Part shown: piece after piece, positions 45,648 through 51,436 of the stretch
How positions within the stretch are numbered: the stretch's first letter is position 1
Layout: the number at the start of each line of letters is the position of its first letter
NCBI GenBank assembly: GCA_963520835.1
Contig: CAUQSJ010000004.1
Coordinates: 18,158-82,157, forward strand
Length of the DNA: 64,000 nt
Direction: 5' to 3'
DNA from: an uncultured Candidatus Saccharibacteria bacterium
GTDB lineage: Bacteria > Patescibacteriota > Saccharimonadia > Saccharimonadales > Saccharimonadaceae
Position numbers and translations under genes: made by a program
The notes under the pieces: model-generated
Databases searched by the model: none
The model's input: only the letters and a program-made list of their open reading frames with translations
What the model was told of the DNA's origin: nothing

Positions 45648-46334
45648 TTAGTTTTTGGCGGATTTGATAGCTTCGACAAAGTAATCAAGAATGAGCTTTT
45701 CAGCCTTAGTGGAATCGTCGTTAGCTGGAATGACGATGTCGATATCGGTTGGATCAACATTGGTATCACAAATAGCGATTACAGGGATGTGAAGAGTCTT
45801 GGCTTCCTTGATAGCGTTCTTATCTTCGCAAGCATCGGTGACAATGATAGCAGCTGGTTGATCAGTCATGTCTTTGATACCACCGTAACGAGTGTTAAGT
45901 ACGGCAATTTCTTCTTGGAAGCGTTGAACTTCGAGCTTAGAATAGCGAGCTTCGAGTTCACCGGTCTTCATGCGGCGTTCGAGGTCTTTAACCTTCTTGA
46001 TTTGGCGGTTAACGGTTTCGACGTTGGTAAGAGTACCACCGACCCAACGTTCGGTAACGTATGGCATGTCGACAGATTCAGCGGCTTCTTTAACGATGGT
46101 TTTGAGTTGCTTTTTGGTGCCAACGAAAAGAATTTTCTTGCCGTCTTTAGCAATTTTCTTGGTAAGAGCAAGAGCTTCTTCGAGGCCAGCTACGGTCTTT
46201 TCAAGATTAATAATGTGAGTGTCTTGGCGCTTGCTATGGATGTATGGGGCCATTTTTGGGTGCCAACGTGAGGTCTTGTGACCAAAGTGAGCTCCTGCTT
46301 CGAGGAGTTCTTTCATGTCGATAGTCTTGGACAT
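45648..46334 (-). CDS. rpsB: 30S ribosomal protein S2
   Basis: Start at ATG 46334 (AAGGAAA RBS; the track ORF begins at GTG 46352). LLEAGAHFGH motif. Confidence 0.93.
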   Translation of the reverse strand: MSKTIDMKELLEAGAHFGHKTSRWHPKMAPYIHSKRQDTHIINLEKTVAGLEEALALTKKIAKDGKKILFVGTKKQLKTIVKEAAESVDMPYVTERWVGGTLTNVETVNRQIKKVKDLERRMKTGELEARYSKLEVQRFQEEIAVLNTRYGGIKDMTDQPAAIIVTDACEDKNAIKEAKTLHIPVIAICDTNVDPTDIDIVIPANDDSTKAEKLILDYFVEAIKSAKN

Positions 46335-46490
46335 GTTTTCCTTTCCCTTCACTTCATCTTGTCTTCAGGAAAACGGATGAAGCTGTTTCATTAAATTAAT
46401 TACTTTTCTATCTTAACATAAGAGGTGGAATCTGTAAAGCTAATTCCCTATTGAAAAAACCGCGAGTATCTGATAAAATGGTGACTAATT

Positions 46491-46823
46491 ATGAGTAAAC
46501 AAGAATTGCATCCAAAAGATTATCGCTTTGTGGTTTTTGCTGATGACGCTGCGAACTTTTCTTTCTTGACCAAGTCTACCGCTAAGAGCGAAGAGACTAT
46601 CAAGTGGACCGATGGAAATGAATATCCACTCGTGAAGGTTCAAATTTCTTCGGCTTCTCACCCATTCTTTACCGGTGAAGAGAAGATTATCGATACCGAA
46701 GGTCGCGTTGACCGCTTCAAGGCTCGTGCTATGAAAGCAGAAGCTTTGAAACAGGCTCTCGCTAACAAAGCTGCCAAGCAGATCAAAGAAGCTGAGAAAA
46801 AAGCAGAAAAAGCTGAAGCTTAA
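46491..46823 (+). CDS. rpmE: 50S ribosomal protein L31, type B (no Cys zinc motif) with a Lys/Ala-rich C-terminal extension
   Basis: 110 aa. Pattern [11 protein letters not shown]....F.T.S..... and [13 protein letters not shown]. Confidence 0.82.
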
Positions 46824-46894: not shown

Positions 46895-46971
46895 GGATCT
46901 TTAGCTCAGTTGGCTAGAGCGTACGATTCACATTCGTAAGGTCACTGGTTCGAGCCCAGTAAGATCCACCA
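46895..46971 (+). tRNA. tRNA-Val (anticodon CAC), CCA encoded
   Basis: Acceptor GGATCTT/AAGATCC, D arm AGCT-CAGTTGGCTA-GAGC, anticodon arm TACGA-TTCACAT-TCGTA, T arm ACTGG-TTCGAGC-CCAGT. Confidence 0.92.
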
Positions 46972-46983
46972 AGACATTTTTTG

Positions 46984-47005
46984 AAATCCCGGGAAGGGAT
47001 TTTTT
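46984..47005 (+). terminator. rho-independent terminator after tRNA-Val
   Basis: 7-bp stem AAATCCC/GGGATTT with loop GGGAA and a T-run. Confidence 0.6.
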
Positions 47006-47042
47006 GTTGGAAAAGAAAAAAGATGGGGGTTATTGTTTGAAT

Positions 47043-47076
47043 AAAAAACATCAGGTAGTATTCCCTGATGTTTTTT
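47043..47076. terminator. bidirectional terminator (serves CDS 47095-48138)
   Basis: 8-bp stem ACATCAGG/CCTGATGT with an 8-nt loop, AAAAA upstream and TTTTT downstream. Confidence 0.6.
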
Positions 47077-47094
47077 GTGTAAGTCTACCTAGTA

Positions 47095-48138
47095 TCAACT
47101 CTCCTTAAAAAGGCGTGGATTTTCAGGTAATAAACCGTCTTTGATTAGTTTATGGCGAATTTCATATGCACGATTAATTTTTTCTCTATTATTTTCATTG
47201 AATAGATGTGATTCTTGTTCCTGACGGATGGATTCGCGGTGATTATCAACGTAGTCAGATTTATTACGAACACCTTCTGGGGTAGGTATTTCATATGCGG
47301 CACTAAGAGCGTTGTCAAGTTTTCTATATAGCCATTCTTCTGTTTTTTCAGCAGAGGACCTGAAGTCATCAACACTATAGTCTTTTTCTAGTTTTGACAA
47401 ACCGTCTTTATTAAATGTTTTATATAATGCTAGTTTAATCTTATTAAATTTACCGTACTTAATATCTCTAAGTTTTTCTGTAGCTACTTCTTTGTTGTGC
47501 TTCAACTCGGCAATTTCTGCCTTCTCCTGTTCGATTGATCGATTTGCGTTAAAAGTATCGAGAGCTTCTTTGTTTGCCAGAATTTCGTCAACTAAAGCAA
47601 TAGAATACTCTTTTTGTATGTAGGGATTTTCAAAACCCCTAAATTTCTCTTTTTCTTTTCCAAGGTAATACGGACTATTATATGCCTGAGGCAAGTCTAT
47701 TTCGTCTGTACGCTTGTTATGTTCATCAGTGTAGTTTTTTCCCGTGGCTATTCCTAAAAGATTTTTTACTACTTTCGTATTGTCGCCGGCAATTAATCCA
47801 CTAGAGTATGTGCGGTCTTGTGCATATAGGACACTCTTCTTTAAAAAAGAATCCTCTTTTTGAGTAAAGCCTTTACTAAGGTCTATTAGGGTGTCAAGAT
47901 ATTCTTTTGAGGCTTCTTGTGGGGTTAATACCTCAACATTCTTAAGCGACTCTTGTTTAGTTAGATAACTATCACTGTCGTGATTGTCTGAAACTTGGTT
48001 GTGGTGTGTTTCATTGTATTCATGCACTAATTGCTTTGCTTTCTCTGCGTTAAAGCTTTCTGACATTCCGGCTAGAGTATCTAGATTTTTATTATTTTCA
48101 GTATCGTTTTCTGGTCTATTATTTAGCTTTTCTTGCAT
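47095..48138 (-). CDS. hypothetical soluble protein (347 aa), orphan, lower GC, TGA stop
   Basis: Long clean ORF with its own terminator. Lys/Glu/Asn-rich, with no TM, no signal peptide and no motif I recognise. Confidence 0.55.
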   Translation of the reverse strand: MQEKLNNRPENDTENNKNLDTLAGMSESFNAEKAKQLVHEYNETHHNQVSDNHDSDSYLTKQESLKNVEVLTPQEASKEYLDTLIDLSKGFTQKEDSFLKKSVLYAQDRTYSSGLIAGDNTKVVKNLLGIATGKNYTDEHNKRTDEIDLPQAYNSPYYLGKEKEKFRGFENPYIQKEYSIALVDEILANKEALDTFNANRSIEQEKAEIAELKHNKEVATEKLRDIKYGKFNKIKLALYKTFNKDGLSKLEKDYSVDDFRSSAEKTEEWLYRKLDNALSAAYEIPTPEGVRNKSDYVDNHRESIRQEQESHLFNENNREKINRAYEIRHKLIKDGLLPENPRLFKES

Positions 48139-48460
48139 TTTATATTCCTTTATATATAACCTTAAAATAATTTTACCATAAAAGTTTTTTTTGGGGTGCT
48201 TATCTAAGAGGTTCAGACATTGATTTATTATTGGATTGATTATGAAGTTATTATAGCATTTTTGCTAGTTTCTCCTGGATACTCATACGCTGGACGGCTA
48301 ACGACTATCGGGCTTTCTCAAAAGGATTTTATGTAGTTCAATTAGAAAGTTAACGAACACTTAGCGATGTATTTAGTAACCCAGAGAATTAGTAAACTTC
48401 CGATGGAAGAACATGGGCTGATTGGCTTAGTAAAACTTGAGAATAAATCGGAAAAAGAAA

Positions 48461-48484
48461 ATACCTCCTATAACTAGGAGGTAT
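48461..48484 (-). terminator. rho-independent terminator after CDS 48513-49160
   Basis: 9-bp stem ATACCTCCT/AGGAGGTAT with loop ATAACT, flanked by an A-run and a T-run. Confidence 0.7.
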
Positions 48485-48512
48485 TATCGTTTTTTCTTAA
48501 CACTAATTACTG

Positions 48513-49160
48513 TTATTGTTCAGCGAATACCTGAAGCATTGGTTCAGGATTGAATTGAAGCAAGGTGGAGTGGTTAGTAATCCACATCTTCAGATAATCG
48601 GGGTGATTCTTGAGGTAGTTATACTCCCTGACCTTCACTATGCGTGGGTCACGCGTAGTGAAGCTCAGTCCGTGTCCGTCCTGATTGTCACCAGTGTGAA
48701 CTTTTTCATTGGCGAGAATAGAAACATAGCCTTCGTGCTGCTTCCAGTCGGCAGTTACCTTACCGGTGACAAAAACATTCTTTTTTAGTAAAGCTTCGTC
48801 GCCGTCATCTTGAATGAAGCACACTACTTCGTCACCGTTATTAAACCATCGATCAGAGCGAATAGTTGCAAGAAGAGGTTTTGACTCTGCCTGTTTCATG
48901 GCTGCCAGAATCATCTGGACGGAATTGAAGGACTCATCTTGCTCTTGTTCTAATTGATTTAATTCATTTTCAGAAATATCCATTTCAGACTGAGGAGAAC
49001 TGGTTACACAAGAGATCATCGTTTCTTTAGTCAGATAATACCCTGCTAGATTTTCAAGATTTTCATTACCAAGAAATGGTAAGTCAAAGTCAGATGGCAG
49101 TTCAATGTTTCTTAAGTATTCAGTAACAAGATTTTTAGTGTTAATTGTTTGATTTGTCAT
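48513..49160 (-). CDS. hypothetical protein (215 aa), acidic N-terminal half, orphan
   Basis: Clean ORF with AGGAG RBS 9 nt upstream of the ATG. No recognisable motif. Confidence 0.55.
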   Translation of the reverse strand: MTNQTINTKNLVTEYLRNIELPSDFDLPFLGNENLENLAGYYLTKETMISCVTSSPQSEMDISENELNQLEQEQDESFNSVQMILAAMKQAESKPLLATIRSDRWFNNGDEVVCFIQDDGDEALLKKNVFVTGKVTADWKQHEGYVSILANEKVHTGDNQDGHGLSFTTRDPRIVKVREYNYLKNHPDYLKMWITNHSTLLQFNPEPMLQVFAEQ

Positions 49161-49435
49161 AGCGCAAATCTCCTTTCTTTAATAAGACTCAGTATGAGTC
49201 AATACAAACAGGGGTTATTTGCTGCTTAGCAGCGCAGGAGATACAAAATTTATATACCCTACGCTGCCAAGCATTAGACAAAACAAATGAAAAACGACAT
49301 TAATGTACGATGGATTAAATCCATGATTGCTATATTGTAGCATAATTAGTTTATTTTGTCAAATAAGCGTAATAGGTTTGGAAGTTTGAGTTTTTGATTG
49401 GATTCTTCGAAAAGTTATTATATAATTAACCTAAT

Positions 49436-50500
49436 ATGGACGAAAAAATCAAAAGTTTAGAGTTGGAATTAACTCAACTTAATCAATTCTTGGAAAACCC
49501 GAAGGTTTACCTCGAGAGTGATTTTGCTGCAAAATCGAAGAGGAAGGCAGAGGTCGAATCAATTTTGGATTTAAAAAATGAAATTACTCGCGCAGAGCAG
49601 CAAATTAAGGATGATGAAGCGATTGTTTTAGATCCTGAACTTGGCGAGATGGCAAAGCTTGAAATTCAAGAGCTTACCGAAAAAATTACGGATTTAACTA
49701 GGCAACTTGATGATAAGCTAATTCCACGTGATCCGGATGATCACAAGCCAGTGATTATGGAAATTCGAGCTGGGGCCGGTGGCGATGAGGCTTCGTTGTT
49801 TGCGGGCGAACTTTATCGTATGTATTTACGCTATGCAGAAAAACATGGTTTTAAAGTGGAACTGATGAATGAAAGCTTAAATGAAACCGGTGGTGTGAAA
49901 GAGGTGGTCTTTAAGATGGACGGAGACACGCCTTTCGGGACGATGAAATTTGAAGGTGGTGTACATCGCGTGCAACGTGTGCCAGTGACCGAGTCGCAGG
50001 GGCGCATTCATACTTCTACGGTGACGGTGGTGGCTTTGCCGGAGGTGGAGGAGTCGGAAATTGTGATTGATGAAAAAGATTTACGGATTGATATTTTTCA
50101 CGCGGGCGGACATGGTGGTCAATCAGTGAACACGACTAACTCAGCTATTCGTATTACGCATTTGCCGACCGGAATTATGGTGGCAATGCAAGATGAGCGG
50201 TCTCTCCGTCAAAATAAGGAGCGTGCCATGATGGTACTACGTACACGCTTAAATGATATTCAGCGAGCAGAGGCGGCGAAAAATGCTTCGGCAGCGCGTA
50301 AAAACTTGATTGGTACGGGCGACCGATCGGAGAAGATTCGTACCTATAACTTCCCACAGGATCGCGTGACAGATCACCGCATTCATTATTCCAGATCGAA
50401 TGTAAATGCAGTAATGGATGGTGATATTGACGATATTATCTCAGAATTGAAGAAGTGTGAGCTCGATGTAATTCGTACGGAAAACGGTATTTCTGAATAA
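49436..50500 (+). CDS. prfA: peptide chain release factor 1
   Basis: 354 aa with the PVT tripeptide (RVQRVPVTESQGR) and GGQ (HAGGHGGQSVNTT). Confidence 0.93.
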   Translation: MDEKIKSLELELTQLNQFLENPKVYLESDFAAKSKRKAEVESILDLKNEITRAEQQIKDDEAIVLDPELGEMAKLEIQELTEKITDLTRQLDDKLIPRDPDDHKPVIMEIRAGAGGDEASLFAGELYRMYLRYAEKHGFKVELMNESLNETGGVKEVVFKMDGDTPFGTMKFEGGVHRVQRVPVTESQGRIHTSTVTVVALPEVEESEIVIDEKDLRIDIFHAGGHGGQSVNTTNSAIRITHLPTGIMVAMQDERSLRQNKERAMMVLRTRLNDIQRAEAAKNASAARKNLIGTGDRSEKIRTYNFPQDRVTDHRIHYSRSNVNAVMDGDIDDIISELKKCELDVIRTENGISE

Positions 50501-50515: not shown

Positions 50516-51436
50516 ATGGCAACCACGGTAAAAAGTTGGCTGGATGTTTCGAAGCAGATTATCAATCCGACAGAGGCGGAGATTATTTTGGCGGTCTCAA
50601 TGGATGTACAAGACCGCAGTTTTTTCGTGACTCACGGAGCGGATAAAATCTCTGATGAAGCGCGGAAGAAAGCGGATCAGATGGTGGCTTTGCGCTCAAA
50701 TAAGGTGCCACTCGCATATATTCTAGGGGTGAAATGGTTTATGGGGCGACCTTTCTTGGTGAATCAAAATGTTTTAATTCCCCGTCCGGAGACGGAACTC
50801 GCGGCGGAGCTGGCGGGAAAACTTTATTATCGAATTATTGATGGGAAATTTAATAGCGGAGAGCAATCCGATATAAAAAAGCCGGTGACAATTGTGGATG
50901 TGGGGACCGGTTCGGGCTGTATCGGTCTTTCGGTGGCTTTGGAATGCGCAAATAGCCAGGTGATTGGTCTCGACATTTCGAAAGATGCGCTAACTGTGGC
51001 ACGAATTAACCGGGATAAATTGGGGGTAAAAAATATTAAATTTTACAAATCAGACCTTCTTTCGACGATTTTACGCTTGAAGATTCGCCCAGAGATTATT
51101 GTGGCAAACTTACCATACGTGGATGAATCTTGGGAGTGGCAGTCACCAGAATTGCAGTATGAACCAAAACTAGCGCTTTATGCGGATAAGGATGGTTTGG
51201 CACAAATTTACCGTTTGCTTGATCAAATTAAGCGAAATTATTTTACTGCGAAAAACCTGGAAGAACTTTCGGAGTCAGAAATTCAGAATGAAATTGAAAC
51301 AAATTATGTGATTATCGAATCAGATATGAGTCAGCAGCAAAAAATTACTGATTATGCGGAAGAATTAGGTTTCGAGTTAGGATTAAAGAAAGATTTAATT
51401 TTAGGATTTTTCTATCCAGTGGATAAGCTGAAATAA
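50516..51436 (+). CDS. prmC: release-factor glutamine N5-methyltransferase PrmC/HemK
   Basis: 306 aa. SAM motif VDVGTGSGCIG and an NPPY-type motif present as NLPY. Follows prfA. Confidence 0.85.
   Translation: MATTVKSWLDVSKQIINPTEAEIILAVSMDVQDRSFFVTHGADKISDEARKKADQMVALRSNKVPLAYILGVKWFMGRPFLVNQNVLIPRPETELAAELAGKLYYRIIDGKFNSGEQSDIKKPVTIVDVGTGSGCIGLSVALECANSQVIGLDISKDALTVARINRDKLGVKNIKFYKSDLLSTILRLKIRPEIIVANLPYVDESWEWQSPELQYEPKLALYADKDGLAQIYRLLDQIKRNYFTAKNLEELSESEIQNEIETNYVIIESDMSQQQKITDYAEELGFELGLKKDLILGFFYPVDKLK

Follow-up and report, generated by a model that had tools for sequence, protein, structure and literature searches.

Do two adjacent orphan genes that lie between a tRNA gene and prfA belong to one acquired island, or are they separate modules? 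The question is raised by a locus within a 64,000-nucleotide stretch of DNA (the whole of which is hereafter called the window) on contig C4 of a Candidatus Nanosynbacter genome (Saccharibacteria; 774 kb, 99.8% complete). Nanosynbacter is a tiny oral epibiont, and Saccharibacteria are obligate epibionts with genomes below 1 Mb; to our knowledge, very little is known about gene regulation in this group. Two open reading frames (ORFs) on the minus strand, orf347 (47095-48138; 347 amino acids (aa), TGA stop) and orf215 (48513-49160; 215 aa), occupy the interval between tRNA-Val (anticodon CAC; plus strand, 46895-46971) and prfA (plus strand, 49436-50500), and our analysis bears out the coordinates and lengths assigned to them in a first-pass annotation. 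That annotation regarded both genes as the remnant of a single island acquired at tRNA-Val and encoding an uncharacterised defence, anti-defence, or host-interaction system. On balance, the segment is probably not one island and instead comprises two independent single-gene modules in a recombination-prone stretch, namely orf215 with a leader that controls its translation and, beside it, a swap slot. One module would consist of orf215 with its own promoter, leader, and terminator, and the other of the slot between orf215 and tRNA-Val.

Both genes are preceded by long intergenic gaps, as the first-pass annotation had pointed out (374 bp for orf347 and 275 bp for orf215, at about the 93rd and 88th percentiles of the gaps in this genome, whose median is 75 bp). 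What it did not contain is the most interesting feature of the segment, the orf215 leader as a conserved RNA motif. This leader (minus strand, 49161-49330) is a real, conserved, and previously undescribed RNA structure; its 173 nt fold at -56.9 kcal/mol, with a z-score of -6.4 against shuffles. The consensus structure of 14 leaders calculated with RNAalifold consists of P1 at the 5' end of the leader (49324-49310), the long hairpin P2 (49273-49223), the short hairpin P3 (49200-49186), and a long-range helix to the Shine-Dalgarno sequence (AGGAG, 49174-49170); an alternative hairpin, GCUGC-UAA-GCAGC, lies at 49233-49221. Compensatory double changes occur at 11 of the 38 pairs in these 14 leaders, and 97% of the cells are paired compared to 40–49% when the partners are slid by one to three columns. 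Because the sequences used for covariation are related, shuffle controls overstate significance, and it is fairer to compare with the slid partners. In 24 diverse leaders aligned with MAFFT independently of the covariance model described below, 12 of the 17 P2 pairs are compensatory. The mean identity of the leader is 91% vs. 84% for the orf215 coding sequence, and the motif is still recognisable upstream of homologues with only 36–44% protein identity. A search of Rfam (4227 families) gave no match within 49161-49330 at the gathering score or at E ≤ 5, and we found no description of the leader motif or of the slot in the literature.

Seven sister species (L011-L017) share this neighbourhood, with RpmE, RpsB, Tsf, PrfA, and PrmC proteins that are 95–100% identical to those of the window genome and Orf215 proteins that are 70–86% identical. 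The promoter of orf215, TTGACA-17-TGcTACAAT (minus strand, 49334-49362; 11 of 12 hexamer positions matching plus the TG extension), is near-consensus and is kept in the sister loci and in most distant loci (L018-L022). A covariance model built from the 14-leader alignment matches 32 of the 59 genomes that are positive for the protein, including all of those with strong protein matches, and only two of 150 other genomes sampled across the family (G132 and G058). In the strong matches, the motif ends at the start codon of the orf215-family gene or no more than about 10 nt from it; for a few weaker ones, the distance to the orf215-family ORF downstream reaches a few hundred nt. The match in G132 is upstream of a 332-aa long-form orf215 homologue, while two weak matches (G058 and one in G395) are not beside a gene of this family. 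No U-tract terminator is present inside the orf215 leader. A leader peptide was considered and rejected: the first codon of the 42-codon ORF falls within the -10 box, and no frame survives the single-base insertions and deletions between close relatives. In one genome (G279:C7:22413-24108, locus L065), two leader motifs and three orf215-family matches are arranged in tandem over about 1.7 kb, a local duplication of the module.

How might such a leader act on orf215? An invariant element, GCUGCUAAGCAGCAAAU, follows P2, and its GCAGC tail can pair with the P2 3' strand; this hairpin is 100% paired in the 24 leaders and contains two compensatory pairs, with the changes found in L062 and L027. The same tail can instead pair with the ribosome-binding and start region, GGAGAUUUGCGC, just past the Shine-Dalgarno sequence. 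The resulting anti-Shine-Dalgarno helix is 73.5% paired vs. 26–50% in slid controls, and RNAduplex predicts a comparable duplex between the tail and the start region in most of the 24 leaders. The two pairings of the GCAGC tail would be alternatives, and by adopting one or the other the leader would hide or expose the Shine-Dalgarno sequence and thereby control the translation of orf215. Candidate effectors include small molecules, proteins (perhaps Orf215 itself), and physical cues. This layout suggests a translational switch by Shine-Dalgarno sequestration. It resembles known structured cis-regulatory leaders, such as riboswitches and leaders of the ribosomal-protein type, in its position downstream of a strong promoter and ahead of the start codon in a single gene family, in its several hairpins with compensatory changes and its most conserved nucleotides in the junctions, and, if the predicted alternative pairings form, in their mutual exclusion at the ribosome-binding site. 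Unlike known riboswitches, the orf215 leader has no Rfam match and is confined to part of one Saccharibacteria family. With a controlled gene of no known function, there is no basis for guessing a ligand.

Several observations weigh against a translational switch. The anti-Shine-Dalgarno helix is moderately supported, with most of its columns invariant or poorly aligned in the distant members, and a competing RNAalifold pairing joins the Shine-Dalgarno sequence to UCGUUUU (49297-49291). Only the promoter consensus underlies the predicted transcription start. The sole contig from an RNA library (49167-49428, depth 2) extends about 100 nt upstream of this predicted start and could be DNA; it was not counted as expression; other sequencing runs (wastewater and others; at most 8% of words) cover mainly the tRNA and short pieces. 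Orf215 itself is acidic (pI 4.65), which argues against an RNA-binding autoregulator. The leader structure could also be a stand-alone small RNA, an element for RNase III processing or stability, or a DNA operator bound by a protein. P2 forms a long and almost perfect duplex, as RNase III substrates do; at the DNA level, P1 (ATGGATT-T-AATCCAT) and GCTGCTAAGCAGC are palindromes that closely follow the promoter; and the reverse strand also scores with the covariance model. However, the antisense score is 40 bits compared to 186 bits for the sense strand, and the motif abuts the start codon with no terminator between motif and gene. In addition, the compensatory changes in P1, P2, and P3, including G-U intermediates, preserve pairing rather than sequence, which favours RNA over a DNA operator. 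We therefore consider these alternatives improbable and prefer the translational switch. Similarly doubtful is a more far-reaching interpretation, in which the leader would be a new riboswitch class confined to Saccharibacteria that senses a host metabolite or signal and switches on a Tudor-like protein of the epibiotic cycle, with the neighbouring slot serving as a dedicated site for the exchange of host-interaction effectors.

The gene downstream of this leader, orf215, has a GC content (40.3%, the 32nd percentile) close to that of the genome (41.0%), and its terminator (minus strand, 48460-48485; 11-bp stem, z -5.9) is kept in all sister loci according to the alignment. In the window and in most of the seven sister loci, orf215 adjoins tRNA-Val(cac) and lies near prfA; two of the loci, on short contigs, do not include prfA. 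Among seven more distant orf215 loci, prfA and prmC are neighbours in three (L018, L020, and L023), and tRNA-Val(cac) is found downstream in the same three; the distant loci revealed no other conserved partner gene. The family was detected by profile search in 60 of 368 genomes of the genus and comprises 57 clusters at 90% identity, nearly all of them metagenomic; it is restricted to Saccharibacteria. The dN/dS ratio of orf215 is 0.2–0.4 vs. 0.02 for prfA, corresponding to an approximately tenfold faster non-synonymous change that is still under purifying selection.

In agreement with the first-pass annotation, neither protein contains a recognisable domain or transmembrane helix. Searches of Pfam, NCBIfam, PHROG, and PADLOC gave no significant match for Orf347 or Orf215, and the maximum hydropathy over 19 residues is 0.6 and 0.5, respectively, so that no hydrophobic segment is present. 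Structure comparison, which had been proposed as a check, likewise revealed no clear homology for either protein, with only a weak barrel and hairpin likeness for Orf215 and generic helical matches for Orf347. The AlphaFold2 (AF2) model of Orf215 (predicted local distance difference test score (pLDDT) 85, predicted template modelling score 0.81) consists of a helical hairpin (residues 32-90), a five-stranded barrel (111-176), and C-terminal helices. Searches with the full-length model by Foldseek against PDB and BFVD and by VIA-align gave weak matches to PWWP, Tudor, and MBT barrels (Z 5.5–6.0; Foldseek E ≥ 0.03) and to a generic helical hairpin, and the best E-value in a sequence profile search of PDB was at least 0.097. 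The ESM Atlas contains the clusters of orf215 itself and a viral cluster at 0.84, the latter a lead only. Residues from about 100 to 215 align with members of the Tudor/PWWP/MBT 'Royal family' as a five-stranded barrel followed by helices (e.g. 6kcp, 3q1j, and 1wjq; 61–71 residues, root-mean-square deviation 2.2–3.5 Å), but their Z-scores of 5.5–6.0 are too low to distinguish genuine relatives from folds that merely share a common arrangement, and there is no sequence similarity. Furthermore, the N-terminal helical hairpin and the conserved MTNQxIN start of Orf215 have no counterpart in these proteins. Some homologues are longer (about 330 aa; P0051-P0059, e.g. L027:505-1503, minus strand) and carry a Cys-rich insert of about 110 residues (FNFCGWCKYC...) between the arms of the helical hairpin, which may be a zinc-binding domain.

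What, then, lies between orf215 and the tRNA? The tRNA-Val gene, identified by ARAGORN and Rfam, forms the fixed left border of a variable slot, and a hairpin followed by a T-run just 3' of it (plus strand, 46983-47005), found by folding, is probably its terminator. Homology between the window and the sister loci stops at 46972-47021, i.e. at the 3' side of tRNA-Val, and blastn delimits the window-specific DNA to about 47022-48247. The slot, measured from the orf215 terminator to tRNA-Val, holds orf347 in the window genome, is almost empty in L012, L013, and L017, contains genes for a 383-aa Fic protein and a 465-aa HELTH-motif protein in L011 and L014, and contains a gene for a 190-aa Ham1-family protein in L016. 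The distant Saccharibacteria L020 (1692-3675) and L023 (6489-7945) keep the order orf215, variable genes, tRNA-Val(cac), and prfA, and their cargo differs as well (unknown ORFs and a Peptidase_S51 fragment). Since this gene order with differing cargo is kept in distant members, the slot is old. The segment had been described as a low-GC island, which is true of orf347 (GC 35.3%, 9th percentile; GC at third codon positions 28%, 4th percentile) and of the intergenic DNA, and not of orf215. The TGA stop of orf347 is, as claimed, unique among 49 crude gene calls in the window, but it is not an anomaly, because 54 of 653 crude calls genome-wide end in TGA and a single one among 49 genes is unremarkable.

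The 374 bp upstream of orf347 record an earlier occupant of the slot. They consist of the orf215 terminator, the decayed 3' remnant of a Fic-family gene (plus strand, 48291-48446), and a promoter block (minus strand, 48248-48297) that is common to different cargo genes. The remnant, found by tblastn, corresponds to the last 52 codons of the gene, with four in-frame stops and 65% identity to the intact copy in L011 (E 2e-15). Fic/DOC proteins (PF02661) are AMPylases and toxins; the intact gene of L011 and L014 has HLFADGNGRTSR and passes the Pfam cut-off (27.7 bits vs. 24 in L011), whereas the catalytic motif HxFx(D/E)GNGRxxR is absent from the window copy, which is dead and unrelated to both orf347 and orf215. 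The promoter block contains an extended -10 element (TGCTATAAT, 48258-48250). Its counterpart in L011 and L014, where it precedes the HELTH-motif gene, is 82% identical, and an alignable sequence also precedes the Ham1-like gene of L016. The blastn segments of the Fic remnant and of the promoter block overlap by 9 nt (CCGTCCAGC), and this 9-mer is present at both places in L011, which is the signature of a deletion between short repeats. An older Fic gene in the window genome would thus have been mostly deleted between the 9-nt repeats, and the neighbouring cargo gene would have been replaced by orf347. The 115 nt between the shared promoter and the start of orf347 show no excess structure (z +0.3). 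The description of both upstream regions as unusually long structured leaders consequently applies to orf215, with its stable fold and covariation, but not to orf347, where the supposed leader is a dead gene fragment plus a promoter. The likely start codons of the HELTH-motif and Ham1-like genes lie 6–7 nt past the shared TATAAT box (L011:8040-8060, L014, and L016:6800-6815), which implies leaderless mRNAs for these two genes, unlike orf347 with its leader of about 105 nt and a Shine-Dalgarno sequence.

The current cargo, orf347, is a real accessory gene that is mobile between genomes. A Shine-Dalgarno sequence precedes it and a strong terminator follows it (minus strand, 47043-47076; 13-bp stem with a U-run behind it, -17.1 kcal/mol, z -5.3), confirming, together with the orf215 hairpin, that each gene ends in a terminator of its own. 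A word-index search of 5.8 billion proteins returned only the 90% cluster of orf347 itself, and phmmer, run exhaustively, retrieved 12 representatives at E ≤ 1e-3; the full-length relatives are 27–34% identical and share conserved N- and C-terminal blocks. By profile search, the family is present in 20 of 368 genomes of the genus. None of its other loci is at the tRNA-Val junction, but several adjoin other tRNA genes (Met, Pro, Ser, and Gly), and orf347 is missing from the same junction in all seven sister species. In the AF2 model the protein is entirely helical, and pLDDT exceeds 90 over residues 170-340; Foldseek and VIA-align searches of PDB gave generic helical matches only (Z ≤ 6.5), and nothing was found for Orf347 in the ESM Atlas. 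Judging by analogy with the other cargo of the slot and from the epibiotic lifestyle, orf347 most likely encodes a strain-variable factor for interaction with the host or with competitors, an assignment to which we attach low confidence. Against it stands that Orf347 has no domain, fold match, secretion signal, or partner, so that its proposed role rests on context. The first ~40 residues of Orf347 (M-x-EK-L/I-N ... LA-x-M ... FN-x-x-KA-x-QL) also begin the proteins of an unrelated 700-aa family without Pfam match in other species (L076:25-2142 and L077:368-2461, minus strand) and a truncated 194-aa copy (L078:237-821), and may represent a shared targeting or secretion module. A profile of this N-terminus found no paralogue in the window genome itself; its match to the Fic protein N-terminus (10.9 bits) was too weak and was not used.

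Are the two genes nevertheless parts of one system? For a single acquired island speak the position next to a tRNA gene, the low GC content of orf347, the lack of known domains in both proteins, and the Fic-type and metalloprotease-like genes in the slots of relatives, which are typical of effectors and toxins. However, this interpretation is largely refuted by the distribution of the genes. All seven sister species that carry a close orf215 lack orf347, although orf215 occupies the same position there, and where both families co-occur (six genomes) they are on different contigs. Presence/absence polymorphism combined with deviant composition at the junction was found for orf347 only, since the composition of orf215 is typical. 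Horizontal acquisition as cargo is thus supported for orf347, with its deviant composition and patchy distribution, and is not supported for orf215, which has kept its position. A defence or anti-defence function found no backing either. PADLOC-DB 2.0, a library of systems described by 2023, gave no match at E ≤ 1 for either protein, and neither tblastn of both proteins against phage records nor a search of IMG/VR with the orf215 profile revealed relatives. As the window moreover contains no att repeat and no integrase lies close by, a common origin of both genes in one island appears very unlikely. Still harder to sustain is the notion that orf347 is a spurious or decaying ORF without function in junk DNA left by cargo turnover. 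Its low GC content, the single close cluster among 5.8 billion proteins, and the adjoining pseudogene remnant would fit, but not the conserved terminal blocks in full-length relatives, the confident model of residues 170-340, and the gene's own Shine-Dalgarno sequence and terminator.

By which route the cargo is exchanged was assessed from the borders of the slot. The earlier statement that no integrase and no att-like repeat of the tRNA 3' end are visible was corroborated: no second copy of the tRNA-Val 3' end exists in the window, even with two mismatches allowed, and a Pfam scan of the neighbours found no integrase, the only tyrosine recombinase of the genome (PF00589) being encoded on contig C10. 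Alleles of orf215 are mosaic; the leader of L012 is 98.8% identical to that of the window and its coding sequence 99.8% identical to that of L013, and such matches to different relatives indicate recombination within the locus. Saccharibacteria are reported to be naturally competent (PMC10633639). Because of the missing integrase and att repeat, the mosaic alleles, and this competence, cargo exchange most likely proceeds by homologous recombination at the conserved flanks, with no apparent integrase. The slot resembles tRNA-adjacent islands and hotspots in that variable cargo of deviant composition lies directly 3' of a tRNA gene and differs between sister species. It is unlike them in that the window genome has neither integrase nor att repeat and each cargo amounts to one or two genes, and unlike site-specific islands in that the promoter block common to the cargos and the deletion by microhomology are signs of homologous or illegitimate recombination.

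One locus, L017, gives a hint that exchange is site-specific and not homologous. Its orf215 module is bounded precisely by two direct copies of a 23-nt sequence made up of the final 12 nt of tRNA-Val and 11 further nt (L017:1160-1205 and 2164-2187; the same in L049), the terminator hairpin of the tRNA has been moved beyond orf215, and a gene for a DUF285/BspA-like repeat protein takes the place of prfA. This duplication is either a site-specific, att-like event or a misassembly, the latter being possible because the locus stems from a metagenome bin that is 65% complete. If genuine, the orf215 module of about 1 kb could be a past or present cassette that integrates site-specifically in the tRNA-Val 3' end, and the slot the product of repeated integrations at this att site. 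The recurring adjacency of orf215 and tRNA-Val(cac) in the distant L018, L020, and L023, the break of homology right at the tRNA 3' end in several loci, and the patchy occurrence of the family (60 of 368 genomes) would agree with such a cassette. Yet the repeat is found in only one of about ten loci and not in the window, there is no integrase in or near the locus, and the sequence on the prfA side is homologous across most sister loci, which makes a site-specific cassette rather unlikely compared with the homologous exchange favoured above.

The remaining surroundings comprise rpsB (minus strand, 45648-46352) and rpmE (plus strand, 46491-46823) on the tRNA side, and prmC (plus strand, 50516-51436) downstream of prfA. 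A second variable site is located between the prfA start and the orf215 promoter (about 49395-49415 in the window), where two sister species carry an extra gene for a 161-aa multi-pass membrane protein (L015:3414-4069 and L016:5113-5760) and where the contigs of L012 and L017 also lose homology.

A leader that is supported by covariation and tied to one lineage-specific family represents a concrete, testable regulatory element in a "dark matter" group. Genetic tools exist, as Saccharibacteria are naturally transformable (PMC10633639). Should the leader prove to sense a ligand, the identity of that ligand would give a clue to what the controlled gene family does. The locus also illustrates that a "long leader" in an annotation can be a dead gene fragment and not a regulatory region. 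Finally, the slot shows how small accessory genes (Fic-type, metalloprotease-like, Ham1-like, and orphan genes) turn over without integrases in reduced genomes, a turnover that bears on strain-level differences in host range.

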